Part shown: piece after piece, positions 3,737 through 29,623 of the stretch | Layout of the letters: each line of letters begins with the position of its first letter | Position numbering within the stretch: position 1 is the stretch's first letter | Source of the DNA: a virus | Lineage: Duplodnaviria > Caudoviricetes | IMG/VR virus record: IMGVR_UViG_3300003887_000057 | Location: 1-37,573 of that record | Reading direction: 5' to 3' (one strand) | Length of the DNA stretch: 37,573 nt | Notes under the pieces: model-generated | Seen by the model: the letters and a program-made list of their open reading frames with translations, nothing else | The model's database searches: none | What the model was told of the DNA's origin: nothing | Position numbers and translations under genes: made by a program

Positions 3737-4998
3737 TGCGCGATTATGCCGAGATTTCCCCTCGGATCTGGACGGGGGATACCGGGCGAAAGATCCGAGC
3801 GATGGGGCAGACGGCGCAGCTGGTGGCGCTCTACCTGCTGAGCTGTCCAAACAGCAATATGACCGGCCTGTTCTACCTGCCTTTGCCGACGCTCAGCCAT
3901 GAGACGAACTGCAATGTGGAGACCGCACGTCATGTCCTGCAGGCGCTTTCAGAGATCGATTGGGCCCACTACGACGAGTCGGAAGAGACGGTCTGGATCG
4001 TCAACATGGCCCGGGATCAGGTGGGTGCGTATCTGGATGCGAAGGACAACCGGTGGAAGAGCGTGGTTCGCGAGTTGACGGTGTTCCAAAAGAGCCGTTT
4101 CCTGCCGGAATTTTTGGACTACTACTGGGAAGCCTATGGGCTTTCGCAGGCATTCGAAGCCCCTTCGAAGCCCCTTGCGAGCCCCTTCGAAGCCCCTTGC
4201 GAGCCCCTTCGAAGCCCCTTGCGAGCCCCTTCGAAGCCCCTTGCAAGGGGGACAAGGTTTGAGGCTGGGAATCCCGGAAGCCCCTTCGAAGGGGGTGGAC
4301 CAAGCGCGCCAGAGTCACCGGAAGCCCCTTCGAAGCCAGGAACAGGAACAGGAACAGGAGCACGAACAGGATCAGGAGCACGAACAGGATCATTTACAGG
4401 AACAGAAGCAGGAACACCGGAAGATGAAGGGGCTTCGTCCTTCCTTCCTGATTGGCTTTTTCAAGAGCTTGGAACTATGGGCATCCGAGAAGCCAAGGCT
4501 CGAAACCTGTTTGAGGATCTGGGTGCTTATGGGCTGCAAGCGGCGCTGGCCAAGGTCAAGACACGGGCCACGGGAGAGAAGGCGGCGGGACTCCTCATCA
4601 GCCGAAGCCATGAGCTGGCCGAGGAGGGGAAGGCGCTGCTGAAGAAGAACCTATCCCGGGCCATGGCCTTGTCGCCCAAGGCTCTGGAGGATCCCATTTG
4701 GGTGATCCTTCCGGAATCACTCCGGGAAGATCCCGAAGTTCAGGCATCCTGGTGCGTCTGGAAGGCCGCTGACAAGATCGCGGATGAATCCACCGAGGGA
4801 AGCCGCCTGGATGCGATTGGAACGTCCCTGGGGGCCTTGGATCGCGTTATGGATCTGATTTTGGCGCGGCATCCCCAATCCGAATCCCTTCGGGCCCGGG
4901 TGGATGAGTTGATCGCCAGTCTAGGGGCGAGCATCAGCCCGAGTCTGGCGAAGCAGGCCGCGTTTCGTGAGGCGATTTCTGGCTGTGGGGTGTCGTGA
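3736..4998 (+). CDS. Phage replication initiator (replisome organiser)
   Basis: TGATG coupling at 3734-3738. N-terminus MRDYAEISPRIWTG...VALYLLSCPNSNMTGLFYLP is typical of phage initiators; a central low-complexity linker carries tandem repeats. Confidence 0.8.
   Translation: MRDYAEISPRIWTGDTGRKIRAMGQTAQLVALYLLSCPNSNMTGLFYLPLPTLSHETNCNVETARHVLQALSEIDWAHYDESEETVWIVNMARDQVGAYLDAKDNRWKSVVRELTVFQKSRFLPEFLDYYWEAYGLSQAFEAPSKPLASPFEAPCEPLRSPLRAPSKPLARGTRFEAGNPGSPFEGGGPSAPESPEAPSKPGTGTGTGARTGSGARTGSFTGTEAGTPEDEGASSFLPDWLFQELGTMGIREAKARNLFEDLGAYGLQAALAKVKTRATGEKAAGLLISRSHELAEEGKALLKKNLSRAMALSPKALEDPIWVILPESLREDPEVQASWCVWKAADKIADESTEGSRLDAIGTSLGALDRVMDLILARHPQSESLRARVDELIASLGASISPSLAKQAAFREAISGCGVS
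4156..4420 (+). repeat. 11-bp iteron-like tandem repeats followed by purine-rich AGGAAC repeats; probable replication origin
   Basis: Eight tandem units (GA/CG)AGCCCCTT(C/G) at 4156-4243, further copies at 4277 and 4321, then strand-asymmetric GGAACA repeats at about 4338-4420. Confidence 0.85.
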
Positions 4999-5177
4999 TG
5001 GTGCGCCATGACGCTCGAAAGAATCGGCAGGATCTGAAATCGGAACGCATCCGAATTGGATTGGGGCTCCTCACTCCCGAGGAGCGCCAGGCGCGATTGG
5101 AGGCGGATCGGAAACGCCAGCAGGATGCCCAGCGGCAAGCCGCGCTGGGGGTGCCGCTACTGGGAGAGGAGGCATGA
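4995..5177 (+). CDS. Hypothetical small basic protein
   Basis: 60 aa; GTGA and ATGA overlaps with both neighbours. Confidence 0.6.
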   Translation: MMVRHDARKNRQDLKSERIRIGLGLLTPEERQARLEADRKRQQDAQRQAALGVPLLGEEA

Positions 5178-5725
5178 TGGTTCCCTTAGATGAAATTCAG
5201 GAGAACCAAGAAGGTTCAGGCGTTCGAGTTGCCGAACTCGTGGCCCTCGACATCAAGGACATTCGAAACGATGCCGTTGGCGGCACGGTGATCCACGTTC
5301 GCCAGGGAAAGGGCGACAAAGACCGCATGATCCCGGTGCGGCCGGAGGTTCGAAAGGTCGTGGATCGTTACTTGAATGCCAGCCACCGAAGCCGAAATGA
5401 CACGGGCGCACTGTTTCTTTCAGAAGACCGTGCCATGGCCAGCCGTGAAAACTGGCGACTGACCACGAAAACGGCCGGCAAGTTGGTGCGCGAGATCGCC
5501 GATCGCGCCGACATCAAAAAGCGCGTCTCTCCTCACGCCCTGCGCCACACCTTCGCCTTTGTGTCGTACCTGCACGGCCGTAACCCGCTCGCCATCCAAA
5601 AGCTACTTGGACACGCATCGCTCAACACGACGATGCGCTACCTCGCCCACTTGGATGACCTCGACCTTCGATCCACCATCCCTGCCGTCCTGTGTGGAGG
5701 CAGGGCCACGCGCAAAGTTGCGTGA
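5174..5725 (+). pseudogene. N-terminally truncated XerC/D-like tyrosine recombinase (catalytic domain only)
   Basis: All catalytic motifs present (GVRVAEL, GKGDK, HALRH, LLGH, TMRYL) but only about 14 residues precede the first motif; core-binding domain absent. Confidence 0.8.
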
Positions 5726-5741
5726 TCTGATCAGGTAGGCA

Positions 5742-5969
5742 ATGAAACACAAGACCTTGCATTCGCTCATGTCGGAGCTTCGCGAACGCCGTGAGGATCT
5801 TGGCTGGACCCAGGAACAGCTAGCAAAGCGGGCTGGATTCTGCCGCCTCACGGTTTCTAGAACCGAATCGCATACAAACAAGCCTTCTATCGAGCACATC
5901 TCAATCTTGGCCGAGGCCCTTGGGTTCGACCTTTCGATTGAGCTCGTTCACAGGCCCACTTTCGAATAG
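5742..5969 (+). CDS. XRE/Cro-CI family helix-turn-helix protein
   Basis: LRERREDLGWTQEQLAKRAGFCRLTVSRTES...PSIEHISILAEALG. Confidence 0.85.
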   Translation: MKHKTLHSLMSELRERREDLGWTQEQLAKRAGFCRLTVSRTESHTNKPSIEHISILAEALGFDLSIELVHRPTFE

Positions 5970-5977
5970 AGGTATCC

Positions 5978-6373
5978 ATGGAATTGATTGACGCAATTAT
6001 GCACGTGAAACAAAACGAAAACTGGAACATGACAGCAGCCGAAACGCTGCTGGAATCCCTACACCGTCACCCGCGCCTGATGGACGTGCTGTTAGAACGT
6101 GAACGTCAGATCAATGCAGAGGGATGGACCCCAGATCATGACGACCAGCACGAAGGCGGGGAACTCGCTGTGGCTGGGGCCTGTTATTTGGAGGAGGGTG
6201 GCACCAACCTCACTACAGACGAGGATATTGAAGAGCAGGGCATTTGCCCGCCCTCGAATTGGCCATGGGCAGAGAGATGGTGGAAGCCCACCGTAGGTCC
6301 AGAGCGGAACCTGATCAAGGGTCTCGCTCTCGGTCTCGCAGAACTCGAACGACTTGACCGAATCCAACCCTGA
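5978..6373 (+). CDS. Conserved phage hypothetical protein
   Basis: GAGG RBS; ERERQ...EGWT..HDD.H..GELA.A..CY...WPW...WWKP...RNL.K..AL..AE.ERLDR pattern, which I recognise from phage accessory genes. Confidence 0.8.
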   Translation: MELIDAIMHVKQNENWNMTAAETLLESLHRHPRLMDVLLERERQINAEGWTPDHDDQHEGGELAVAGACYLEEGGTNLTTDEDIEEQGICPPSNWPWAERWWKPTVGPERNLIKGLALGLAELERLDRIQP

Positions 6374-6374
6374 T

Positions 6375-6518
6375 CTGTTCAACACAGATCGGGATAGATG
6401 GGAGCCAACCGCAGGAGCGCACCCGCTAAGAGAAGATGCCAGAAGGGAAATCAACTTTGATTGGCGCTACAACCATCCAAATGAAAAGTTTCGCATTAAG
6501 AAATACATCCAGGCGTAG
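6375..6518 (+). pseudogene. Headless gene fragment beginning at a boundary motif
   Basis: Open frame LFNTDRDRWEPTAGAHPLREDARREINFDWRYNHPNEKFRIKKYIQA* with no ATG start or RBS; begins at CTGTTCA. Confidence 0.5.
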
Positions 6519-6533
6519 CCAGAAAGGTGAAAC

Positions 6534-6632
6534 ATGAACCTGAAAACAGCCTTTGAAATCGTTTTCGTATTTCTTTGTTTTGGGATCATCTGCTTTGCGC
6601 TTGGCTTCCTCAACGGCAAACGGCGCACCTAA
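6534..6632 (+). CDS. Small membrane peptide (32 aa)
   Basis: GAAAGGTGA RBS; MNLKTAFEIVFVFLCFGIICFALGFLNGKRRT*. Below the ORF track cut-off. Confidence 0.65.
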   Translation: MNLKTAFEIVFVFLCFGIICFALGFLNGKRRT

Positions 6633-6643
6633 ACGATCTGTCC

Positions 6644-6730
6644 ATGAACACTCCTAACCCATTCCTTATCGCATTCCCCATCTGCCTAGCCCTGCTAGTG
6701 CTTGCCAAGCGGCTAGGTTGGGTTAAGTAA
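6644..6730 (+). CDS. Small membrane peptide (28 aa)
   Basis: MNTPNPFLIAFPICLALLVLAKRLGWVK*; bounded by motifs at 6638 and 6733; no clear RBS. Confidence 0.45.
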   Translation: MNTPNPFLIAFPICLALLVLAKRLGWVK

Positions 6731-6752
6731 TTCTGCCCATCTGGAGGAACCA

Positions 6753-6875
6753 ATGGAAATCACGAAAGGCTTCATCGAGGCTGTGGAGATGGGAGCAGAA
6801 GACATCCGATCTGTTGTCCGTGACTGCGAGAAAGAGTTAGCCGAGAAATACACGGATGGTGCAGGATGTCCATGA
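6753..6875 (+). CDS. Small acidic protein (40 aa), possibly 3'-truncated
   Basis: GGAGG RBS; MEITKGFIEAVEMGAEDIRSVVRDCEKELAEKYTDGAGCP*; reads through the motif at 6866. Confidence 0.6.
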   Translation: MEITKGFIEAVEMGAEDIRSVVRDCEKELAEKYTDGAGCP

Positions 6876-6886
6876 AAGGGAACCAA

Positions 6887-7117
6887 GTGAAGCTGCCCTG
6901 GTCCTTCCGAATCCGCCAAGCCTGGGAACTGATTTGGCATGGCACTGATACCCGATATGAGAGCGCCCTGGCAACGCTCCAGCAGGTTTCCATTGACTTG
7001 GACGAAGCCATGATCGACCGGAAGCTCTACCGCCTAACGCTCATGAAGGTCGAGGACTACGCAAGGGGCACCGACGCCATGCTCCACGCCCTCGTTTCCA
7101 ACACCCTCAACCACTGA
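6887..7117 (+). CDS. Hypothetical protein
   Basis: Likely GTG start after GAAAGGGAACCAA (alternative ATGs at 6866 and 6872); stop overlaps the motif at 7117. Confidence 0.65.
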   Translation: MKLPWSFRIRQAWELIWHGTDTRYESALATLQQVSIDLDEAMIDRKLYRLTLMKVEDYARGTDAMLHALVSNTLNH

Positions 7118-7140
7118 TGTCCAGAAAGGTGAAGCAATGA
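7114..7140 (+). repeat. 27-bp direct repeat, copy 1 (stop + motif + RBS + start)
   Basis: CTGATGTCCAGAAAGGTGAAGCAATGA; differs from 7711-7737 at one base. Confidence 0.9.
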
Positions 7141-7397
7141 GAATCACGAACGGATTTAACCTGGGCTGGGAATGGGGCTTTGGGTCCATGGGACAGTCCC
7201 GTAACTTCGCTGTGCTCGCATCCTGGCACCCGTCATGGTCACTCACCTGGGCATGGGCGCTCTACTGGTCGAAGGGCTTCGAATGGAAGCCCGGCTTCCG
7301 CCGCTGCCGTGGTGCCATTGGCTGGCTCTCTATCCCGCTGCTGTGGCTGGGGACGCTCGATCTCCGCTGGCAGCCCACCGTGCGCCGTCTGGCGTGA
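7137..7397 (+). CDS. Trp-rich hypothetical protein
   Basis: 86 aa, GAAAGGTGA RBS, motif immediately after the stop. Confidence 0.65.
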   Translation: MRITNGFNLGWEWGFGSMGQSRNFAVLASWHPSWSLTWAWALYWSKGFEWKPGFRRCRGAIGWLSIPLLWLGTLDLRWQPTVRRLA

Positions 7398-7436
7398 ATG
7401 TCCACATTCCACACCCATCCCGCGAAAGGGGAACCA

Positions 7437-7619
7437 ATGATCCTTTCCGTTTCTCAACTCCGTGAAGCCCTAGAACACATGGGTGGTGGAGACGATGACG
7501 ATCTAATCGAATTTGCTAAGGCTGAAACAGATGCAGACGGGCATTCAGGTGCGGGCATCTATGTCGCCAGTGCGGAATATCCAGACGAAGGCGGAATCTA
7601 CCTCGGACCTCAAGCATGA
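7437..7619 (+). CDS. Acidic hypothetical protein
   Basis: GAAAGGGGAACCAATG leader; MILSVSQLREALEHM...AEYPDEGGIYLGPQA*. Confidence 0.7.
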   Translation: MILSVSQLREALEHMGGGDDDDLIEFAKAETDADGHSGAGIYVASAEYPDEGGIYLGPQA

Positions 7620-7714
7620 GGCAGCGACACGTCAACTTGCTATTCGCTATCGCGATAGGCATCGCATGGGCGTCAATCCTGTTTATTCCGCTGATTTCTC
7701 ATCTCAAACGCTGA
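7616..7714 (+). CDS. Small membrane peptide (32 aa)
   Basis: ATGA overlap; MRQRHVNLLFAIAIGIAWASILFIPLISHLKR*. Confidence 0.6.
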   Translation: MRQRHVNLLFAIAIGIAWASILFIPLISHLKR

Positions 7715-7737
7715 TGTCCAGAAAGGTGAACCAATGA
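7711..7737 (+). repeat. 27-bp direct repeat, copy 2
   Basis: CTGATGTCCAGAAAGGTGAACCAATGA. Confidence 0.9.
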
Positions 7738-7937
7738 CCGAAAACGATGCCGAACACCTTGCGTTTGAATCTTACTGCAAAGAGAAGGGGCTGGATCGTT
7801 CCATGCACCCTCTACACCTGCTCTATCTGAACCCGGACACTAAGAAGGCTCTGGATGCGTTCAAGGCTGGGTGGAGTTCACAGATTCGTGCCTACAACGA
7901 ATCCGAGTGTGCAAAGCGCGGAATAACTATTAGTTAA
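7734..7937 (+). CDS. Hypothetical protein
   Basis: 67 aa with a strong RBS. Confidence 0.7.
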   Translation: MTENDAEHLAFESYCKEKGLDRSMHPLHLLYLNPDTKKALDAFKAGWSSQIRAYNESECAKRGITIS

Positions 7938-7949
7938 TCTGGTGGGGAC

Positions 7950-8279
7950 ATGAAAACTAAAGACTTTCCAAGCGTTAAGGCTGCTAAAACAGCCTCGTTC
8001 AATATGTTTGCGTTTTACCGGACGATGAAGCGCCTTACAACAAAGCCAGTGACTACCACTGCCCCTCTGGAAGCCCAGAACCGCCATGATGATGATGATG
8101 TGGATGCTGAGTGCCGCAACCTACTCATGGAGGAGAACGACGCTTTACGAGCCCGCATTACGGAGCTGGAGGATTTCGTCCGAGACACGGCTGAAAACTA
8201 CGACTGTGACAAGGACGCCCACACCCACGGAACCCGTTGTCGCACTTGCGAAGCCACGAAACTCCTAAACAAGAAGTGA
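7950..8279 (+). CDS. Hypothetical protein with coiled coil and C-terminal Cys/His cluster; possibly chimeric
   Basis: LMEENDALRARITELE coiled coil; CDKDAHTHGTRCRTC; a basic N-terminus changes abruptly to acidic near CTGCCCC at 8059. Confidence 0.65.
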   Translation: MKTKDFPSVKAAKTASFNMFAFYRTMKRLTTKPVTTTAPLEAQNRHDDDDVDAECRNLLMEENDALRARITELEDFVRDTAENYDCDKDAHTHGTRCRTCEATKLLNKK

Positions 8280-8295
8280 ATGTCATGGAGCAACG

Positions 8296-8502
8296 ATGCC
8301 TGATTGCACTCGCTCACACCCGCATGATGATCCCTGCCGCGATCACGACCTGTTGACGCGGATTACGCGTCTTGAAAACGCCCTGCGCCAGATCGAGAGG
8401 CTACCAGAGTCCTGCTATGACGAACTCAACGGGATTGGCGCGGCGCGGTCTATCGCCCACACTGCCCTCAAACCCATAACTGCCCATAACGGAGAACCAT
8501 GA
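8296..8502 (+). CDS. Hypothetical protein
   Basis: GGAG RBS; CTRSHPH...RITRLENALRQI...ARSIAHTAL, a common phage accessory pattern. Confidence 0.7.
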   Translation: MPDCTRSHPHDDPCRDHDLLTRITRLENALRQIERLPESCYDELNGIGAARSIAHTALKPITAHNGEP

Positions 8503-8822
8503 GCTTATCTACCTGCGAGCACTGTGGCGGACACATCCCCATCGGACCCGCTGCATCAAACCGATGCAATTCATGTGGCAGGCACATTTTTGATCCATCC
8601 CCAGACACGTTTGAAATGTCTACATCAGAGGCGTTAGATTCATTCCGGTTGAAACATAGCCCACGCCCTATTTGCCCATCGTGCGGAGATTCCCCGGATG
8701 AGCCCGAAGAACTGTTCGAAGGGGATGAGGAACTCGCAACCTATGACTGCGAGACGTGCGGAACGGGATACCGGATCACCAGAGAAATCACCGTCACATA
8801 CTCAACCGAATTTCGCGGATAA
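8499..8822 (+). CDS. Double Zn-ribbon protein
   Basis: CEHCGG...CNSCG and CPSCG...CETCG pairs; GGAGAACCATG leader. Confidence 0.75.
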   Translation: MSLSTCEHCGGHIPIGPAASNRCNSCGRHIFDPSPDTFEMSTSEALDSFRLKHSPRPICPSCGDSPDEPEELFEGDEELATYDCETCGTGYRITREITVTYSTEFRG

Positions 8823-8829
8823 CGCATCT

Positions 8830-9390
8830 GCCCAGGAGCAGGCCCAAGGCCAGGGGCGGGATGTGCAGGCCCTGATCTCGGATCTGCAGGGCCGCTTGAC
8901 GGAGCTGAACTCCGGCGCGGCTTCCAAGGGGATTCGCAAGGCCTCCGACTTGGTGGACCGGGTGCAGGCCCGGGAAGCCTTCCGGGATGCTTCCGAGGTC
9001 GGTGGCAAGCGGGTCTGGTTTGGGCTGCCTGCCATTGATGACTCGGTGGAAGCCAGCCCTCGGCATGTGGTGATGGTGGCGGCTCGGCCTGGTGTCGGTA
9101 AATCGGCCATGGCCATCCAGGGCCTGTGGAAGACCGCTGCGCAGGGCCATTCCTCCCTGCTGATCTCCCTGGAAATGGACGAATACGAGGTGGAGGCCCG
9201 CCTGGCGAGCTGGAAGACCTCAGAGGGGCACCGCCGGTTTCGTGCAGGCACTTACTCGGATGCCTCGGTGTTCAACCTCAGCCGGGAGACGGAAACGCTG
9301 GATCGGATCCACCACTGGATCCACCCCTCGAACGTGCCGTGGCCCACGGTGGAAGCCACGATCCGCGATGCGGTGCGACTGCACAGATTG
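8830..9390 (+). pseudogene. dnaB: Internal fragment of a DnaB-family replicative helicase
   Basis: WFGLPAIDD, Walker A AARPGVGKS and H1a ISLEM present; no N-terminal domain or RBS; similarity stops before Walker B. Confidence 0.8.
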
Positions 9391-9520
9391 CGGGATACGG
9401 CCACGACCCTGAGCTATTTGTGGGCGACCTGGAGGGACCTCCAGCTGCGGGAAAGCCCCCTCAGCAGGGGGGCTCAATTCTGGCGGAGTGAAATGCTGCG
9501 TGAATCCAGAAGGGAGAACC

Positions 9521-9724
9521 ATGAGCGATAAGCGAGAAAACCCAGGAGCAAATCGCGGCAGGGCTACCTTGAGCGACCGGTTAGGCAAGGCTGCTAGGGA
9601 TCACCCAGATTGGCCCGGTCCTGGTTGGGTTGCCGTTTGGAAAACCTACACGAATGGTTCCGATCAGATCGTCGGATGGACTGAAGAGGATCCCCGCAAC
9701 CCCGGCGCAATTTACACGGCCTAA
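9521..9724 (+). CDS. Hypothetical protein
   Basis: CCAGAAGGGAGAACCATG leader; motif at 9728 follows the stop. Confidence 0.65.
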   Translation: MSDKRENPGANRGRATLSDRLGKAARDHPDWPGPGWVAVWKTYTNGSDQIVGWTEEDPRNPGAIYTA

Positions 9725-9779
9725 CGAATGTCCACATTTATAACGAAGGTAATGCTTGCCAGCGATATCATCGCGAATC

Positions 9780-10448
9780 ATGTGCGGACGCTTTGCCATC
9801 CATGCGACCTCTGAGGAACTAGCACTTGGGCTTGGAGCACCTGTGTTGCGGGGATTCCGTGAGGAGCGCCGCTACAACGTGGCACCTGGCCAGTGGATCG
9901 TCATCGTTAGGCCAGAAAAGAGCCAACGCTCACATTCATTAGCCCGCTGGGGACTCATTCCAAACTGGTCGAAAGATCCAGAGGTGGGGCCAAAACCCAT
10001 CAACGCCCGCGCCGATGGCGTGGCGACCAAACCGACCTTCCGCGGTGCCTTCCGGCATGGCCGGTGCCTCATCCCTGCATCAGGCTTCTATGAATGGAAG
10101 GCTGTGGGTTCCAAAAAAGTCCCGCACTACATCAGGCCAGCCGAGGGCGGAATCTTCGTGTTCGCCGGATTGGTGGACACATGGCACGGGCCAGATGGGG
10201 AGCTGACGACCTGCACCATCATCACAACTGAGCCAAACGGCCTAATGGAATCCATCCACAACCGAATGCCAGTGATCCTTGGCCCGGAAGAGGCAGATGC
10301 TTGGCTTGATCCAGAACAGAAGGCCAATGCCCTCATTGCTCTGCTGAAACCTCTCCCTTCCAACCGTATGGAAGTCTTCCCGGTATCAACCCAGGTGAAC
10401 AATGTTTGGAATGATGGACCGGAGCTAATCGTGAAGGTCGGGTTATGA
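9780..10448 (+). CDS. SOS response-associated peptidase (SRAP; YedK/HMCES family abasic-site protecting protein)
   Basis: True start MCGRF with catalytic Cys2; RYNVAP, WGLIP, INAR, RCLIPASGFYEW, IHNRMPVIL. Confidence 0.95.
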   Translation: MCGRFAIHATSEELALGLGAPVLRGFREERRYNVAPGQWIVIVRPEKSQRSHSLARWGLIPNWSKDPEVGPKPINARADGVATKPTFRGAFRHGRCLIPASGFYEWKAVGSKKVPHYIRPAEGGIFVFAGLVDTWHGPDGELTTCTIITTEPNGLMESIHNRMPVILGPEEADAWLDPEQKANALIALLKPLPSNRMEVFPVSTQVNNVWNDGPELIVKVGL

Positions 10449-10666
10449 CGGAAAATACATGGGAATCCCGTCAAAGACTCCGTGGGTACCTTTCGCGGAA
10501 GCGTACAAAGGGACCGTTGAATGAAGCCCAAGAAGCTGCGTGGTGGGCATTGAACGAAATTGATGATTTGGTTGATTTGCTTAAGTCGGTTCAGCGCGTA
10601 GGCCTGACACCTGAGGTTCGGGCGGGTGTGGATGCGATGGTGAAGCGGAATACTCGTCCTGAGTGA
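10445..10666 (+). CDS. Hypothetical protein coupled to SRAP
   Basis: ATGA overlap; 73 aa. Confidence 0.65.
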   Translation: MTENTWESRQRLRGYLSRKRTKGPLNEAQEAAWWALNEIDDLVDLLKSVQRVGLTPEVRAGVDAMVKRNTRPE

Positions 10667-10785
10667 AAGCCTTGATAAGTATCCGGGCCTCACTGGACAT
10701 GCCATCTATTCCCGAGTTGGCGAGGTCCTGGAGATAGGGCTGTAGCGCGATCATGCCGCCAATGATATTCCAGTAAGGAGTGGCT

Positions 10786-10986
10786 ATGCGTACCTTCGCT
10801 CAATTCCTTGATGACATTGGATTCCAATCTGATGCTTGCGAGTCTTGCATCGAACACGATTTCTACCGTCTTGCCGAGCGCATGCACAAGGCGCTCGAAA
10901 CCATAGCTGATCCCAGCACCACCGAAATGACGCATTACGGAACCGTGCTTGTACTTCGGTCCCACGCAAAGAACGCCCTAAGGTGA
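10786..10986 (+). CDS. Hypothetical protein
   Basis: TAAGGAG RBS; MRTFAQFLDDIG...AKNALR*. Confidence 0.65.
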   Translation: MRTFAQFLDDIGFQSDACESCIEHDFYRLAERMHKALETIADPSTTEMTHYGTVLVLRSHAKNALR

Positions 10987-11105
10987 ATCTGAAGCATCAA
11001 GCGAGATCAATTTCGTAGCTCCACGAAAATGATCCGCTCTCAATTCGGTGAAGCATTCGCCCTGATTCGAGGGCTCGGAAGGCTGCGCCATCATGAAAGG
11101 AAACC

Positions 11106-11438
11106 ATGAGCAGGACCATTCGATCTTCAGATATTCGGGCCGTGATCCTCTCGGCGTTAGTGGGTAAGGGTTTGGCGGCTATTGAGGCTGAAAAACTAGC
11201 GGAGACCTGCGCCAAGGCTCTGAAGCGCCAATACAGCGGGGACCGCACATATTGGGCTATTGAGAAAGTCGTACGCCACGGCATGGATGTGGCTACTCGG
11301 AAGGCTATCTTCATGGAATGGTGGCTGCACGGTGATGCTGGAGAGCATGGCGATGGAATTCTAGTTACTCGCGGTATCAGCGTGAGCACGTTGGAGCGCA
11401 TTAAGCGTGAAGGTCGGAAGTCTAAATGGGCAGCGTGA
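11106..11438 (+). CDS. Mor/C-like transcriptional activator (putative late activator)
   Basis: Helical N-terminus, QYSGDRTY resembling the Mor GG.xxY strand, C-terminal HTH-like RGISVSTLERIKR; lies upstream of the packaging genes. Confidence 0.55.
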   Translation: MSRTIRSSDIRAVILSALVGKGLAAIEAEKLAETCAKALKRQYSGDRTYWAIEKVVRHGMDVATRKAIFMEWWLHGDAGEHGDGILVTRGISVSTLERIKREGRKSKWAA

Positions 11439-12502
11439 GTTTGCGTTCCGGGCCTATCACGCTAATACCTCGCGGCAAGGTATGGCACTTCCGCTTCCAG
11501 CTGGACGGATTCCGAGTCATGCGCACTACACGGGAGCCGCTGAAGAACCGGGCCAAGGCTGAGCAGGTAGCCCTGAGCCACTACCAAGCCGCTCTGCTTC
11601 GATCCAGGGGGGAGGAGCCTGAAGTGACGCTGCAGGAGGCGTTCGCTCTCTGGGTGGAGGCTCATGCACTGCGACTGTCTCCCAGTCACATCGAGAACGT
11701 AGACCGCTGCGGCCGGATCCACCTAGGGCGCCTAGCTGGGCTTCCCGTGTCGCAGGTGTCCACCCGTATGGTGGAGGAGGAGTTGGCGGTCTTCTTATCC
11801 AGCCACAAGCCCTCTTCGGCGAACCAATGGCTCGCAGATATCCGCTTGGTAATGCGATGGTGCATCCGGCGCCGCATGATCCGAGTCGTTCCCTTTGATG
11901 TTCGGGAAACTCGGATCAAGCGAAAGCCTAAAGTGTTGATCCCCACGGATAAGGCGGCAGATTGGCTGGCGGAAGTGGATGCCTTGGCTGAGCATGAGCC
12001 GAGCATTGCCATGGTCCTGCGCCTGATGATTGGCTTGGGGCTTCGGGGTGGTGAGGCCCGGCAGGCGCGCTGGGAATGGCTGGACCTGGAACGTGAGCTC
12101 TACATCCCGGGCGACACCAAGGGTGGGGAGGCATGGCCTCGCCCGGTACCGCCATGGATCCTGGATGGATTGAAGGCCCAGCACAAACCATTCGGTTGGA
12201 TGGCCCCCACCTTGGCTGGTGCACCTGTCACCCCTGGGAGGGTGAAGCGGACCTTTGATGCTGCGTGCAAGGCGGCAGGCATTCAGCGTCTGGTGCCTCA
12301 TCGCCTGAGGGCTACCTATGCCACCTGGCTTTCAGAGGCGGGCGTCCCCATCCAGGACATCCAAGCGGCCCTTGGGCACAAGGATATTCGGACCACGGCC
12401 ATCTACCTGGGGGTTGACCTCGGGCGCGTGGCGGCCGCTCAGCGTCGCGTGGCGGCCCGGACTGGTTTGGGCGGGATCAAAAGCGGCGCAAGCATCGCCT
12501 AG
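11435..12502 (+). CDS. Full-length tyrosine recombinase/integrase
   Basis: GTGA overlap with the Mor-like gene (alternative ATG 11426). Arm-like N-terminus RGKVWHFRFQLDG, core-binding region, catalytic GLRGGE, TKGG, HRLR, LGH, AIYLG. Confidence 0.92.
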   Translation: MSLRSGPITLIPRGKVWHFRFQLDGFRVMRTTREPLKNRAKAEQVALSHYQAALLRSRGEEPEVTLQEAFALWVEAHALRLSPSHIENVDRCGRIHLGRLAGLPVSQVSTRMVEEELAVFLSSHKPSSANQWLADIRLVMRWCIRRRMIRVVPFDVRETRIKRKPKVLIPTDKAADWLAEVDALAEHEPSIAMVLRLMIGLGLRGGEARQARWEWLDLERELYIPGDTKGGEAWPRPVPPWILDGLKAQHKPFGWMAPTLAGAPVTPGRVKRTFDAACKAAGIQRLVPHRLRATYATWLSEAGVPIQDIQAALGHKDIRTTAIYLGVDLGRVAAAQRRVAARTGLGGIKSGASIA

Positions 12503-12660
12503 AGCCCGCACCAATGGTTGATTGTTCAATTAAATTGAGTAGTGCTACAGAAAAAGCCGAGAACGATCTTCGAGGATTACAACGGCACAAAATGCACTTA
12601 CGTGCGGTCTCCGCTTCGAGCTCCTTCGGCAAGTGTTGCACCGCTTCGCCTTCTGAAAAA

Positions 12661-12712
12661 TTAACGGGTCCCTCTGGGTGGGTAACCCACTGCGGGTAAT
12701 TCGCACCTCGGT
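12661..12712 (+). other. Candidate lambda-type cos region (cosQ-like plus cosN-like)
   Basis: TTAACGGGTCCCTCTGGGTG resembles lambda TTTACGGGTCCTTTCCGGTG (cosQ GGGTCCT), followed by partially symmetric TGCGGGTAATTCGCACCTCG; about 140 bp upstream of the small terminase gene. Confidence 0.5.
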
Positions 12713-12850
12713 TGGGTCTGTGCGTGGGTCTTCTGAGGGCCATTTCGTTTTCACCACCCCCATGGAGGGGGTCGGTAGGCGGGTGTATGGTTTATTGCAG
12801 TATAAATATGCAAATAAGTCACAAGCGCCCGTCTCCGATTTGGAGGCAAC

Positions 12851-13285
12851 ATGCTAGGAGTTCTTGCACTTGCGGACTTAATGGGGCTTACCCCCAGACG
12901 TATCCAGCAACTGTGCGCTGAGGGTATGCCCAAAGCGAAACGGGGCCAGTACGACGAGTTGGAGTGCCTTAAATGGTATGTCCGATACCTACAGGCGAAG
13001 CTCCAGAGCGGTGGAGCCGAGGGGCATTCCGGATTGAGTGGCACCGAGCGGGCCGCGAATGCAAAGGCGGCACTTTTGGAGCATGAGCTGGCTGCCATCC
13101 AGAAGAAGACCCTCGCCATCGATGACTACGAAAAAGCCCATGCCGATCTGATCACGCCCGCTCGCCTGGAACTGCTGGCGATCGAGGCGCGGCTTCGGCC
13201 CATCATCGGCCCCGATGCTGCAGCGAAGTGCGGATCCGAGATCCGGCGCTCGCTCACGCGGCTGGGCCAGGAGGATTCCGAATGA
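12851..13285 (+). CDS. Terminase small subunit (Nu1-like)
   Basis: GGAGG RBS; winged HTH LADLMGLTPRRIQQL..EGMP...GQYD...CLKWY followed by a coiled coil. Confidence 0.88.
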   Translation: MLGVLALADLMGLTPRRIQQLCAEGMPKAKRGQYDELECLKWYVRYLQAKLQSGGAEGHSGLSGTERAANAKAALLEHELAAIQKKTLAIDDYEKAHADLITPARLELLAIEARLRPIIGPDAAAKCGSEIRRSLTRLGQEDSE

Positions 13286-13775: not shown

Positions 13776-15716
13776 ATGCGCATTCAAACCCACCCCTCCG
13801 CCCTCGAACACCTCTCCCGCGTCCAAAAGCGCCTTCGTGCCCTATGGATGCCACCCCCTCGCATCAGCATTGAGGAATGGGCCCAAGCCAAACGGGTGCT
13901 GCCCGCCGATTCCGGTCGACCCGGGCAATGGCAGGCCGATCCCATCCAGCGCGAGATCCAGGAAAGCATCTGCGACCCTGAGGTGCAGGAAGTCGTTTTT
14001 ATGAAATCCACCCGCCTGGGTTGGTCGGAAATCTGCAACAACGCCCTCGGCTGGGGTATCGATGTCCATGGCATGGCTATGATGATGCTGCAGCCCTCGA
14101 GAGATACCGCCGAGGACTATTGCAAGGGACGCCTGGAACAGATGATCGAAGGCACACCCGCTCTAGCCAACCTCCTGCGGATCTCCACCTCCCAGGGGTC
14201 CGGATCCACTACCCGCTACAAACGTTTTCGCAATGGCGGCAGTTTCTTCGTGCCCTCCGCGGGCAATCCCAGGGAACTTCGATCCCGGCGCGCCCGGTTC
14301 GTTATCGAGGATGAGGCCGACGCCTACAAGAACGATGTCAGCGACGAAGGCGACCCTGACAAGATCGTTCGCCGCCGTATGGATGAGTTCGGCAGCGATG
14401 GCAAGCTCCTCATTGGCAGCACCCCGGGCATGCCCCAGGGCATCAGCCGTATCGAGAAGGCCTATACCAAGTCGTCACAAGGCATCTACGTCATGCCGTG
14501 CCCGCACTGCAACGCCCTTGAGCCCTTCCGCTGGCGCGATCCTGCCAACCCCAACACTTACCTGCTGCGCTTCGAAAAGACCGTGGATCACCAAGTCATC
14601 CCCGAGAGCGTGCGGTGGACCTGCATCCGCTGCGGCGCAGCCATCGAGGAGCGTTGGAAGGTACAGATGATGGAAGTGGGTCACTGGCTTCACCGCCGTC
14701 CCGCCATTACTCGCGTGAAGGGATACCATGCCAATGCCCTGTACGCGATGACCCACGGGCACTGGGCGCGTATGGCTCAGGAATGGGTGGATGCCCAGGG
14801 CGATCAGCTCGAACTGAAGGCCTTCATCAACCTGCAGCTGGCTGAGACCTTCTCTGAGCCTGGAGAAAGCCTGGAAACCGACGAACTCCGCCGCCGTGCC
14901 GATGCCTGGGATGGGCAGCGCGGCATCGTGCCCGATGGCGTGGCCCTGCTGGTGGTATCTGTGGACGTTCAGACCGCTGCGCCGGGGCGTTTAGAAGCCC
15001 AGGTAGTGGGATTCGATGCCGACGAGCGGGCTTTCCTGGTGGATTTCCAGGTATTTGGAGGCAATCCGGTCGAGTCCTCTGTTTGGGAAGACTTGGACGC
15101 CTGGCTGTTGGCTGGCTGGAGCCATGAAAGTGGGGCCCGGATGCATGCGCATTTGGTGTTGATCGATGCCCGCGACGGCAATACCAAGGCCTCCGTCTAC
15201 GATTTCTGCCAGATTCGCGCCGACCGCTGGGTTTTTCCTCAGATGGGCATGGAAACCATCGCCTCCAAAGGCTGGGCCGAGGAATCCAGCTCCAAGAAAT
15301 CCACTGTGCGCATGTTCCTGAGTTCCACCGATGACCTCAAGCGGGCCCTGTTCTCTCGACTGGGCATCCCCGTGGGTGCGCCGCGATCCGTCAACCTTCC
15401 ATCCTGGGTCTCCCACGACTACCTGAAGCAGTTGGCCGGAGAGAAGCGCGTGCCCGTCACCGATAAGACCACCCGAAAGACCACGTACCGATGGGTCAAA
15501 ACGGGCGGGGCGCGCAACGAGGCCTTGGATCTATGGGTCTACAACCTTTCGGCCCTTTGGATCCTCACCCGCATCCTGGCGCCCTATCTCTCGGGGCCCG
15601 AAGGTCGAGAGCAGATGTTGACGTTGGCAGATGTAGCAAGGAATGGCGGGGTGGCAAGTTCCGGCGGTGGTCAAACGGATGGACGTAGGATCCGGAGTCG
15701 TGGATTTCAAGGATAG
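13776..15716 (+). CDS. Terminase large subunit (lambda GpA family)
   Basis: KSTRLGWSE (Walker A variant), VIEDEAD (Walker B), GSTP, PCPHC...CIRC Zn motif, SVDVQ nuclease, RNEALDLWVY. Confidence 0.95.
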   Translation: MRIQTHPSALEHLSRVQKRLRALWMPPPRISIEEWAQAKRVLPADSGRPGQWQADPIQREIQESICDPEVQEVVFMKSTRLGWSEICNNALGWGIDVHGMAMMMLQPSRDTAEDYCKGRLEQMIEGTPALANLLRISTSQGSGSTTRYKRFRNGGSFFVPSAGNPRELRSRRARFVIEDEADAYKNDVSDEGDPDKIVRRRMDEFGSDGKLLIGSTPGMPQGISRIEKAYTKSSQGIYVMPCPHCNALEPFRWRDPANPNTYLLRFEKTVDHQVIPESVRWTCIRCGAAIEERWKVQMMEVGHWLHRRPAITRVKGYHANALYAMTHGHWARMAQEWVDAQGDQLELKAFINLQLAETFSEPGESLETDELRRRADAWDGQRGIVPDGVALLVVSVDVQTAAPGRLEAQVVGFDADERAFLVDFQVFGGNPVESSVWEDLDAWLLAGWSHESGARMHAHLVLIDARDGNTKASVYDFCQIRADRWVFPQMGMETIASKGWAEESSSKKSTVRMFLSSTDDLKRALFSRLGIPVGAPRSVNLPSWVSHDYLKQLAGEKRVPVTDKTTRKTTYRWVKTGGARNEALDLWVYNLSALWILTRILAPYLSGPEGREQMLTLADVARNGGVASSGGGQTDGRRIRSRGFQG

Positions 15717-15745
15717 AAAAAGGCCCCCGTTTGGGGGCCCTTTTG
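15717..15745. terminator. Bidirectional intrinsic terminator
   Basis: AAAAA-GGCCCCC-GTTT-GGGGGCC-CTTTT between convergent genes. Confidence 0.8.
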
Positions 15746-17552: not shown

Positions 17553-17769
17553 AGCGCGTTGGACTGAGAAACCGGCCATGCCGGGTGAGATCTCCCGCAA
17601 GGCTCCCCATCAACATCGTTGCGCCATCTGCAATGGCCGGATGCATCTGGGCAATCACCACGTTGAGGAAGGCCCGGAGGGGCCCACCGTCTCGCCGTCT
17701 GTGGTTTGCCCGCATCCCGGGTGTGGCGGGCATTACTTCGTGCGCAATGGGAGGGTTGAATGGTGTTGA
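17545..17769 (+). CDS. Small Cys/His protein, DUF6527-like
   Basis: CAIC...PTVSPSVVC...CGGHYFVRNGRVEWC; GAGGA RBS. Confidence 0.65.
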   Translation: MAEARWTEKPAMPGEISRKAPHQHRCAICNGRMHLGNHHVEEGPEGPTVSPSVVCPHPGCGGHYFVRNGRVEWC

Positions 17770-18857: not shown

Positions 18858-19619
18858 ATGCAAGTCAAGGCGAGCGTCGATATCACCTCTTTTCAGGATG
18901 GCTTGACGCTCTTCGAGCGCCAGCAAATGCCTTTCGCGCTGGCCCAAAGCCTCACACGTACGGTGACAGCTGCTCGAGCGAAGGTGCAGCAGGTCATGCC
19001 GCAGGTTTTCGACCGGCCCACTACCTCAACGATTCAGGGGGTGCGCTTCCGGCCCGCTCGCAAGGATCGGCTTGAGGAAGGCGCGGCCGTATTCATCCTG
19101 GATGAAGGCAATGGAAAATCTCTGTCGCCCAACAAGTGGCTGATCTCCGAAGTCGATGGTGGGCGCCGAGCCGATAAACGTCTCGAGGTGGCCCTGAAAA
19201 TGAAGGGGCTCATGCCTAAGGATGCGCAGACAGCTGCTAGCAAGTTTGCACCCCTGGATGCCTACGGAAATCTGAGGGGATCCTTCGTCGTGCAGCTCAT
19301 GTCCATCCTGAACCTCTTGGGAGAGACGGGCTACGCTGCGAATCGCACGGCCCGAAGCAAAGCGAAGAAGAAGAACCCCATCGAATACTTCATCGGAAGG
19401 CCCGAAAAGAGAGGCCGTGTTGGGGTATGGCAGCGCATCGACACGGCCTTTGGATCGGCCATCCGGCCCATCCTGTATTTCATCAAGCCTCCCAGCTATC
19501 GCAAACGTCTCCCGTTCTACGCCATCGTTGACGAAGTTGCCCAGGCTCGAGGACTCAAAGAACTGCGCCAGTCGCTGGATGACGCGCTTAAGACCGCATT
19601 CAACAAGGCCTCGAAATAA
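18858..19619 (+). CDS. Conserved basic phage protein (possibly gpZ-like tail completion protein)
   Basis: QMPFALAQSLTRT...VFDRPT...LDAYGNL...SYRKRLPFY pattern seen in lambda-like prophages. Confidence 0.55.
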   Translation: MQVKASVDITSFQDGLTLFERQQMPFALAQSLTRTVTAARAKVQQVMPQVFDRPTTSTIQGVRFRPARKDRLEEGAAVFILDEGNGKSLSPNKWLISEVDGGRRADKRLEVALKMKGLMPKDAQTAASKFAPLDAYGNLRGSFVVQLMSILNLLGETGYAANRTARSKAKKKNPIEYFIGRPEKRGRVGVWQRIDTAFGSAIRPILYFIKPPSYRKRLPFYAIVDEVAQARGLKELRQSLDDALKTAFNKASK

Positions 19620-27137: not shown

Positions 27138-29623
27138 TGGCCGACAAGGATATAAAAGTCACGCTGACCGGTGATGCTAAGGGTCTTCTCAGCACACTCG
27201 ATCAGGCATCATCCCGGATTAAGGGCTTCGCAAATGACGTTCAAGGCGTCGGTTCGGGCCTATCCGGGATGATTGGGAAGATCCAGGCGCCCTTGATGGC
27301 GCTGACTGCGCTTGTCGGCGGTGGCGCGCTGTTTAAAAGCGCCATTGATGGAACTGTTGCCTGGGTATCCGAAGTAACGGTCCTTTCGAAGACCCTGGGG
27401 ATCACGTCTCAGGAGGCCAGCGGACTTGCGACTGCGCTTCAAGATTTGGGCGTTGGCAGCGATGTTTACGCCAAGGCATCCGTGAAGCTAGCCAAAGACA
27501 TGGGTAGCGGTGGCACCGCGCTCAAGCGCCTCGGAATCGAATACAAGGATGCGCACGGGAATCTGCTCCCGTTGCAAACCGTGATGATGAACAGCATCAC
27601 GCGTCTGAAAGAACTCAAAGAAGGATCAGACCGTACCGCCGGCGGCACTATCCTCTTCGGGAAAAGCTGGCAGGAAGTGGCAGGGATCCTGAAGATCTCC
27701 GCCGAGCGTCTCGCCGAAGGTGCCGCCAAGGCGGAGGCCCTGCACAAAGTGGTAGGTCCCGACGCTGTTAAACAGGTGCGCGACTACAAGGAGGCGATGC
27801 GGGATGTTGGCGACGGTGCCGAAGCCGTTAAGTATGCGGTAGGCATCGAACTGATTCCGACACTTACCACGCTGGCAAATTACCTGGGCCGCACGGGCCC
27901 GGCCGCTGCAGAGGGTATGGCCTTCGCGCTCAAAGGTGTAAGCACGTGGTTCATGCTCTTTAAGGCATATGTGGAGATCGGAGCGACAGCCATACGCGTG
28001 GCGCTGCTAAGCGTGTGGGACGTTCTGAAGACTGTTGCCGAGGCGGTGTACAAGTTCCACACGATGGACTTCAAGGGCGCCTGGGACACCCTGAAAAAGG
28101 GATGGACGGAGCTAAAGAACGATGTAACCACCGGTGCGGTTGACATCAAAGAAATCGTCACGGAGACCATTGGGGACGTGAAGGGCGTTTGGGGTCCTGT
28201 AGAGTCCAAGGGGAAACCCGAAACCAAGAAGGGCTCCGAGGGCGATGATCTAGGCGATGAAAAAGGTAAACATCCGGAGAATGTATACGAAGCGGAGCGG
28301 TTAAAGCTTCATCAAGAGTTGGTGAAGATTCAGGCTGATGAAACGATTCAGGCCAAGGCCAGGGCGCAGTTGGCAGAGATCCAGGCTAAGCTGGAATCAG
28401 AGATCCTGCGGTTCAAAAAAGAGGCAAAAGAGGGCAAGTTAACCTCTGGTGATCAGGCAAAACTGGAGGTTCAGGCTGCCCAGTTGGCCGCTGCGCAAAG
28501 TTCAGCGGTTCTGCGGAAGCTGGCTGAGGATGAGGCCAAGGAAAAGGCCAAGCTCGATCAGGTGGCCATTGAGCGATTCCAAGATCATCAGCTGGCACTG
28601 ATCGACATTGAAAGGAACATGATTGCATCCAAGGCTCAGCTTGGAGAGATCAGTGCGGCAGAGGAAATTGATCGGTTAGAGGAGCTGGAGAACGACAAGT
28701 TCAACATCCAGCGCCAGTCACTTGTTCGGAGACTGGCTCTTGAAAAACTGGAGCCTGCCGAACGCGCCAAAATCATGGCAGACATCGCCAAGGTTGAGGA
28801 TCAGCGCACGGCCTCAAAAATGGATTTTGGACAGCAGCGGAAGGGACTCCGACAACAGGGCTCTCCCATGGCTGGCATCAAGGCCTACGTCAACCAGGGC
28901 AAGGCTGAGCTGCAGAACTGGAAGAACACGGCCATGCAGGCGATGCAGGGCGTCGAGAATGCTTTCTCCCGCGGCATCGAGGGCATCCTCTCTGGACAGA
29001 TGAGCCTAGGCGAAGGCCTCAAATCCATTTGGCAGGGGATCGTCTCGACGATTATCCAGCAGCTGGCGCAGCTCGCCGCCAAGTGGATCGTGACGAGTAT
29101 CGCCGCTCAGATGTTTGAGGACACAACGGCGGAGACGGCCGAAAATGTCGCAGTTGCTCAGCAGGAGGCCGCTGCGGCGTCTCTGTGGGCCGCCTATGCG
29201 GCGATTCCGTTTGCGGGTCCTGCACTGGCTGCTGGGTTTATCGCGATGATGAATGCATCCCTACTGGCTAATGCTGGAGCGGCAAAGGGCATCGTGGCCC
29301 ATGCCCAGGGCGGCATCATCGACCGGCCCACCTTGGCCCTCATGGGTGAGTTGCCTGGCTCTCGCGAGATCGTGGCGCCCGAAAGCACGTTCAAGGATTG
29401 GGCGGGGAATCTCACGCGCAATATCCTCGCGAGTGAGCGGCAGGCGCAGTCCTACAGCAAATACAGCTCCAACATATCGCGCGTGTCACAGCGACAGGCG
29501 TCGGCTGGGTCAGGCACTCCCGTTCACAACTATGCCGGCGCAACGATCATCACCACCTCGCAGCGCGAGTGGGAAGACATGGTCGCCAAGGGGACGCGCG
29601 GATATGACAGGAGAACCGCATGA
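27137..29623 (+). CDS. Tape measure protein
   Basis: 828 aa, helical and Ala/Gly/Lys-rich; C-terminal AHAQGGIIDRPTLALMGE..GSREIV.P. Confidence 0.9.
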   Translation: MADKDIKVTLTGDAKGLLSTLDQASSRIKGFANDVQGVGSGLSGMIGKIQAPLMALTALVGGGALFKSAIDGTVAWVSEVTVLSKTLGITSQEASGLATALQDLGVGSDVYAKASVKLAKDMGSGGTALKRLGIEYKDAHGNLLPLQTVMMNSITRLKELKEGSDRTAGGTILFGKSWQEVAGILKISAERLAEGAAKAEALHKVVGPDAVKQVRDYKEAMRDVGDGAEAVKYAVGIELIPTLTTLANYLGRTGPAAAEGMAFALKGVSTWFMLFKAYVEIGATAIRVALLSVWDVLKTVAEAVYKFHTMDFKGAWDTLKKGWTELKNDVTTGAVDIKEIVTETIGDVKGVWGPVESKGKPETKKGSEGDDLGDEKGKHPENVYEAERLKLHQELVKIQADETIQAKARAQLAEIQAKLESEILRFKKEAKEGKLTSGDQAKLEVQAAQLAAAQSSAVLRKLAEDEAKEKAKLDQVAIERFQDHQLALIDIERNMIASKAQLGEISAAEEIDRLEELENDKFNIQRQSLVRRLALEKLEPAERAKIMADIAKVEDQRTASKMDFGQQRKGLRQQGSPMAGIKAYVNQGKAELQNWKNTAMQAMQGVENAFSRGIEGILSGQMSLGEGLKSIWQGIVSTIIQQLAQLAAKWIVTSIAAQMFEDTTAETAENVAVAQQEAAAASLWAAYAAIPFAGPALAAGFIAMMNASLLANAGAAKGIVAHAQGGIIDRPTLALMGELPGSREIVAPESTFKDWAGNLTRNILASERQAQSYSKYSSNISRVSQRQASAGSGTPVHNYAGATIITTSQREWEDMVAKGTRGYDRRTA

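Follow-up and report, generated by a model that had tools for sequence, protein, structure and literature searches.

The stretch of DNA analysed here, hereafter the window, is the complete 37,573-nucleotide IMG/VR record IMGVR_UViG_3300003887_000057 (Caudoviricetes), a single 37.6-kb phage contig with genes for an antirepressor, replication, terminase, portal, head and tail. Between the replication genes on one side and the packaging genes on the other lies a run of small genes, all on the plus strand, many of which end in variants of one short motif. A first-pass annotation had described positions 5174 to 12502 as an integron-like gene-cassette array with a 7-bp junction motif unlike attC, bounded by a truncated and an intact tyrosine recombinase gene. 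The array is present, extending from 5723 to 9734, and the genes at 9780-12502 carry no site. We put at roughly three in four the probability that the window holds a decayed array of a phage-encoded, hairpin-free cassette system, in which an enzyme of the type encoded at 5174 would recombine DNA at a TGTCCA core.

Immediately upstream of the array stands the damaged recombinase gene (5174..5725). The damage, first taken for a truncation, is an in-frame internal deletion: about 13 N-terminal codons are fused to the catalytic domain, residues 14-181 aligning with residues 166-333 of the family member P0057 (82%), and some 150 residues, including the core-binding domain, are missing. The catalytic R, K, H, R, H and Y are retained. 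No activity is predicted for this copy. The first site (5723..5738) is degenerate, with TGATCA at 5728-5733 showing two mismatches to TGTCCA, and the core is exact in intact relatives. It is followed by an HTH_3 gene cassette (5742..5978) ending in the degenerate core TATCCA (5973-5978), by a 131-residue phage accessory gene resembling PHROG 6628 (5978..6381; degenerate terminal core TGTTCA at 6376-6381) and by a small open reading frame (ORF; 6400..6521) that ends at 6518 in a damaged site, where the leader GAAAGGTGAA is retained and the core appears partly deleted, judging by comparison with the junction types. Next come a 32-residue ORF with an exact core at 6639-6644 (6534..6644), a 28-residue ORF with the core variant TGCCCA at 6734-6739 (6644..6739) and a 40-residue ORF that runs through an exact core at 6867-6872 (6753..6872). 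Exact cores also close a cassette gene at 6888..7123 (core 7118-7123; 14.3 bits), an 86-residue tryptophan-rich gene at 7137..7404 for which no relative was found (core 7399-7404; 11.9 bits) and two overlapping small ORFs at 7437..7720 that are PHROG 6628-like (core 7715-7720; 16.4 bits). Two genes without a site between them (7734-7937 and 7950-8279) occupy the stretch 7734..8286 and are followed by the damaged core TGTCAT (8281-8286); a frameshifted gene (8296..8486) and a 107-residue zinc-ribbon-like gene (8499..8834; 12.5 bits) each end in TGCCCA, at 8481-8486 and 8829-8834, respectively. The interval 8835..9508, running from the 8829 site to a damaged site (TCCA, 9505-9508) that is followed by a leader of a recurring type, holds a start-less fragment of a DnaB helicase gene. 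DnaB homology begins at residues 42-49 of ORF 8698, around nucleotides 8821-8845, and this fragment, lying between two sites, may have been captured through a crossover within a helicase gene, where a site was present by chance. The last cassette gene (9521..9734) and its exact core (9729-9734) end the array. A SRAP (SOS-associated peptidase) gene follows directly (9780-10448), and short direct repeats within a replication gene at 4150-4420 probably mark an origin region. Further downstream and outside the cassette system stands a prophage integrase gene (PHROG 1, Phage_int_M), the intact recombinase that had been placed at 11435 and whose large ORF spans 11426-12502.

The motif is real. ATGTCCA occurs at 6866, 7117, 7398, 7714 and 9728, CTGTCCA at 6638 and CTGCCCA at 6733, 8480 and 8828, as first described, and the copies at 14062, 19299 and 25637 lie within long ORFs, as had also been claimed. 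On the plus strand of 5726-9800, ATGTCCA is found five times (shuffle mean 0.23, maximum 2) and TGTCCA six times (mean 0.74, maximum 4), counts reached in 0 of 1000 shuffles. The invariant part is shorter than the seven bases proposed, namely the 6-mer TGTCCA. When gene ends were scored with a weight matrix trained on other phages only, the window being excluded, 8 of the 22 in 5174-12502 reached at least 7 bits, against 0 of 39 elsewhere in the phage (Fisher p 1.1e-4), so that stop-codon composition does not explain the motif. The array cores comprise six exact copies, three TGCCCA variants and about six damaged by substitution or small deletion; the statement that most gene ends carry the motif holds only when the damaged sites are included, exact and one-mismatch cores being found at 2 and 3 of 12 window ORF ends.

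The same site recurs in other phages: 32 array stretches with 207 junctions were gathered from viral contigs scanned for the pattern, from searches with the recombinase and from host genomes, array limits being drawn by eye, duplicate contigs reduced to one each and chance-like clusters excluded. In the consensus, G-N4-TGTCCA-N4-C, the 6-bp core is exact and is framed by mirror-image arms, which extend over the stop codon and in many cases over the ribosome site as well. Among 201 sites, G stands at -5 in 159, whatever the phase of the stop codon, and C at +5 in 112; of the 62 arms that no ribosome site overlaps, 87% have this C. Few sites have C at -3 (3 sites) or G at +3 (12 sites). The arrays are direct repeats on a single strand, and, of 144 intervals between sites (median 251 bp), 117 contain a single ORF, in line with the gene-cassette array initially proposed. 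Few of the 133 cassette proteins scanned gave Pfam matches, among them methylases, RtcB and RNA ligase; this cargo (RtcB, RNA ligase and DNA methylases in cassettes of L096, L181, L094, L307 and L362) could counter host defences. One array, L095, contains a tandemly duplicated two-cassette unit (4305-5334, 99.8% identity), either real or an assembly artefact, and terminator-like hairpins were seen by eye at the array ends of L005 (near 17660-17690) and L378 (near 1240-1270), before lysis genes. The motif is very likely a recombination site.

Recombinase loci were retrieved by protein rather than by motif. The family of the 5174 enzyme encompasses about 70 clusters of proteins of ~342 residues with intact catalytic residues; R179, K207/K210, H282, R285, H308 and Y317, the catalytic set of tyrosine recombinases, are invariant across 48 family sequences. 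A structure model (predicted local distance difference test score 86) matches XerA, IntI, XerH and Cre and has a two-domain, XerA-like fold. Three full-length members score 74-93 bits against the IntI profile TIGR02249 (cut-off 265) and 55-58 bits against NF011946 (cut-off 435), and the IntI insertion is absent: on the structure 2a3v, a stretch of 62 IntI residues corresponds to 30 positions of the profile, and the alignment to XerA is continuous. The best scores against the XerC, XerD and XerA equivalog profiles are 130-147 bits, below cut-offs of 220-335. The family enzyme is XerA/C-like, not IntI. Its array-associated members, including the window copy, form one clade (support 100/100). The 13 intact loci of this core clade hold 66 stop-linked cores within 3 kb downstream of the recombinase (30.4 kb) versus one upstream (31.8 kb), and the first core lies 1-8 nt past the recombinase stop in 11 of them; seven sister-clade loci hold two downstream sites in total. 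In L174, the contig ends (11058) 8 nt past the recombinase stop, at the expected position of the first core. Sister recombinases in L364-L367, L341, L342 and L097 have no arrays, and three related matches have an internal stop. Judged from this distribution, the catalyst of cassette exchange is likely a member of the 5174 recombinase family.

All three copies of the 5174-family gene found in host genomes lie amid phage genes, and several loci also hold a separate prophage integrase. The bacterial family of genome G524 was reached via the window's other integrase (11426); of its 133 genomes, 3 carry the core clade, each time in a prophage-like region. No 5174-family match was found in a sample of 401 genomes of the phylum, and a comparison with 50,697 annotated phages gave none that was close, the best listed identity being ~31%; scans of genomes and metagenomes returned, among the matches listed, mostly unrelated Xer genes. 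The family member P0065 carries the name of Mesoterricola silvestris, a species of Holophagaceae, and Holophagaceae are likely the hosts of these phages. Arrays beside a recombinase in host chromosomes, envisaged at the outset, did not appear: no junction-type array was present in the 30 examined of 81 host matches to the left-arm pattern.

Breakpoints between related phages coincide with the core, as proposed when the motif was first described as the crossover point of an attC-less cassette system. Once one duplicate row had been removed and the repeat-driven L290/L295 and within-locus matches filtered out, blocks shared at 88% identity or more had 20 ends away from contig edges, of which 11 were located at a core, as were seven of eight for blocks at 97% or more. 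L372 and L383 share a stretch of 3264 bp at 99.97% identity that starts one base before the first core. There is no other match upstream, where the recombinase stands in one of them and three additional cassettes in the other. In 8 of 24 metagenome runs, contigs (from peat) part from L005, among the matches listed, at four of its five cores or no more than 5 nt away; the DNA itself may have come from one of these runs, and a single campaign may have produced the peat runs. Among the same matches, the other loose ends (14757, 15990 and 15597-15737) come from short matches of 18-44 nt, and two in X23 (15458 and 16604) are unexplained.

An alternative source of such breakpoints, on the model of the promoter early stem-loop (PeSL) cassettes of phage T4, is short-homology recombination at shared linkers, through phage Sak4/Erf annealing proteins or RecA, with the recombinase merely hitchhiking. 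Sak4/Erf genes do lie upstream in L175-L177, arrays without an enzyme (discussed below) fit this explanation, and so do leader swaps, mid-gene chimeras and the many unrelated genes with identical leaders (86 pairs) or trailers (75 pairs) of at least 10 nt, versus ~0.5 expected. Leader identity stops 0-2 nt after the start codon in 25 of 44 same-start pairs and reaches further in none, no common start being assignable for 42 more pairs, and shared tails of unrelated genes extend a few bases into the gene. Individual cases illustrate the pattern: the ~100% identical genes at L290 6675-6866 and L295 8318-8510, and likewise those at L008 3476-3681 and L011 2552-2758 (reverse strand), have different leaders, the switch falling at or just after the start codon; and L287/L295 and L261/L287 contain chimeric cassettes with only their 3' or 5' halves in common. 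Across the core, however, the arms assort freely, a common left arm being joined to a common right arm 18 times versus 15.0 expected, which implies that linkers are not passed on whole; when seed-like junctions were taken out, two of three arm-linkage tests drifted to p 0.05-0.07 on counts of 3-4. Nor does short homology account for cores that are either exact or absent (of 148 ORF ends in other arrays, 115 have an exact core and 6 a core with one mismatch) or for arrays that begin at the recombinase stop. As a complete explanation it is unlikely, and a short-homology process probably acts alongside site-specific exchange.

Less likely again is a true recombination site served by host XerC/D or by the 11426 integrase, a host enzyme and this integrase having been the candidate catalysts named at first pass. 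The site has a layout resembling that of dif, with a 6-bp spacer, symmetric inner arms and asymmetric outer parts, and many arrays have no family enzyme in cis. Its arms nevertheless differ from the dif arm consensus, and the clade-specific adjacency of recombinase and array is left unexplained. The 11426 enzyme itself is an ordinary prophage integrase: its relatives adjoin a tRNA gene in six of eight host loci, and arrays are absent from all 13 loci checked, which show at most three stop-linked cores in 3 kb (L004 and L005 were left out of this count, their array following a 5174-family gene). We reject it as the cassette catalyst, since arrays track the 5174 family. 

A translation, RNA-processing or repressor-binding signal between small genes would explain the constant position of the motif between stop codon and ribosome site, and also the AACC found at a fixed offset on its right in 51 of 207 sites. 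Such a signal, which we consider very improbable, predicts neither breakpoints at the core nor branch points in metagenomes nor arrays starting at the recombinase stop. Rfam searches gave no RNA family match, two hits at E near 1 being disregarded; no promoter with stem-loop terminator was found between array genes, and the only promoter-like hit in window positions 4900-12900 was weak and below chance. Integron-type ends are also rare, as first suggested, with RYYYAAC near 9 and GTTRRRY near 1 of the 207 sites. An attC-like folded single strand with a hairpin too variable for detection is the least credible of all: folding z is slightly negative upstream of cores (-0.57 versus -0.26 mid-cassette, n = 127) and small hairpins were seen by eye at several recombinase gene ends, but z stays close to 0 in the surroundings of the core and beyond it, whichever strand is taken, no arm-to-arm pairing was found within junctions or predicted circles, and the enzyme lacks the IntI insertion.

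Several observations weigh against the reading of the window as a decayed, enzyme-driven cassette array. Nine of the 20 shared-block ends fall off the core, the leader differs in two of three near-identical cassette pairs, and none of the window's cassette genes was found in other arrays. Excision as circles, part of the initial proposal, was not observed: assembled contigs from the eight metagenome runs contained, among the matches listed, no excised circle or cassette-skipping joint, contigs being prone to drop rare forms. The recombinase loci are not all independent, L177/L179/L181 and L094/L175 being closely related, and the sites were gathered by their exact core, which biases the consensus; the count of 148 ORF ends in other arrays serves as a control for this bias. 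Site content is only ~18.5 bits, for an estimated ~20 chance copies per 3.5-Mb genome, and high-scoring copies occur outside the window array (for example, 17.0 at 28833, and another at 19300), which together mean that a specificity factor is missing. Finally, 15 array records have no adjacent enzyme and none encodes one elsewhere, 4 of the 15 being at least 90% complete. In arrays without enzyme, 77 of 97 ends are still exact, and decay in the window is therefore not a simple result of enzyme loss in cis.

In the mechanism that we favour, the recombinase would cut and rejoin double-stranded DNA at the TGTCCA core, so that whole genes are gained, lost or swapped, with one monomer presumably bound to each dyad arm and the 6-bp core acting as the putative overlap region of strand exchange. 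Tyrosine recombinases such as Cre and Xer require identical overlaps for strand exchange, which would explain why the core is kept exact. A cassette would consist of the core, a leader with ribosome site, the gene and a stop-bearing arm. Because all sites have the same orientation, cassette circles could be excised and inserted, or two co-resident phage genomes crossed; arrays without enzyme might be served in trans by another prophage. Cassettes are likely transcribed by read-through from the phage early operon. Shared leaders up to the start codon, together with shared tails, point to a second process that builds cassettes. A broader proposition, to which we lend only tentative credence, is that of a phage gene-capture platform with an origin separate from that of integrons, acting on unfolded double-stranded DNA, in which a second precise step would join genes to leaders and tails and so build cassettes. 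A phage-encoded cassette system built on a Xer-like enzyme and an unfolded site of 16 bp would, if true, represent an independent solution to the cassette problem, to which attC-based detection is blind, and some temperate phages would owe their hypervariable small-gene regions to an enzyme. Through the leaders and tails held in common, the origin of cassettes, an old question, would become testable, and a recombinase whose arms tolerate ribosome sites and stop codons could become a tool for gene shuffling inside operons.

A literature search, made without most subscription papers, found no description of this system, which shares features with several known ones. As in Cre-loxP and XerA/XerH-dif, a two-domain recombinase without an arm-binding domain is paired with dyad arms and an asymmetric spacer; those systems resolve genome dimers at one site, whereas here many degenerate sites bound single genes. 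The pdif modules of Acinetobacter plasmids likewise combine short sites, a 6-bp spacer, gene modules and an enzyme of Xer-type fold, but their arms, in contrast to ours, are dif-like. The pdif modules rely on host XerC/D and plasmids rather than a dedicated enzyme and phages (PMC9771954), and the pdif sites flanking tet39 are inverted, whereas ours are direct repeats. In the PeSL cassettes of T4-type phages, too, a motif recurs between genes and small phage genes are shuffled at it; PeSLs are promoter-terminator units, unlike sites without promoter or stem-loop that possess an exact 6-bp core and a linked site-specific recombinase (PMC2839356).

The closest functional parallel is with integrons. 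There too, a tyrosine recombinase lies beside tandem, co-oriented one-gene cassettes mostly of unknown function, some encoding DNA methylases, and arrays also occur without the enzyme, as clusters of attC sites lacking integron-integrases (CALINs). Integrons, the gene-cassette platform of the textbooks, cannot work without IntI and folded attC sites. Their definition by IntI, attI and folded attC is set out in PMC8618304, and phages carrying true attC sites and IntI are reported in PMC9892861. By contrast, the system described here has a XerA/C-like enzyme far below the IntI cut-offs and without the IntI insertion, an enzyme gene co-oriented with the cassettes inside a phage operon, no attC hairpin, no GTTRRRY core and apparently no distinct attI, the first sites of arrays looking, by eye, like the remaining ones. 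The feature would resemble an integron in its working, yet it lacks the IntI enzyme and the attC hairpins by which an integron is defined.

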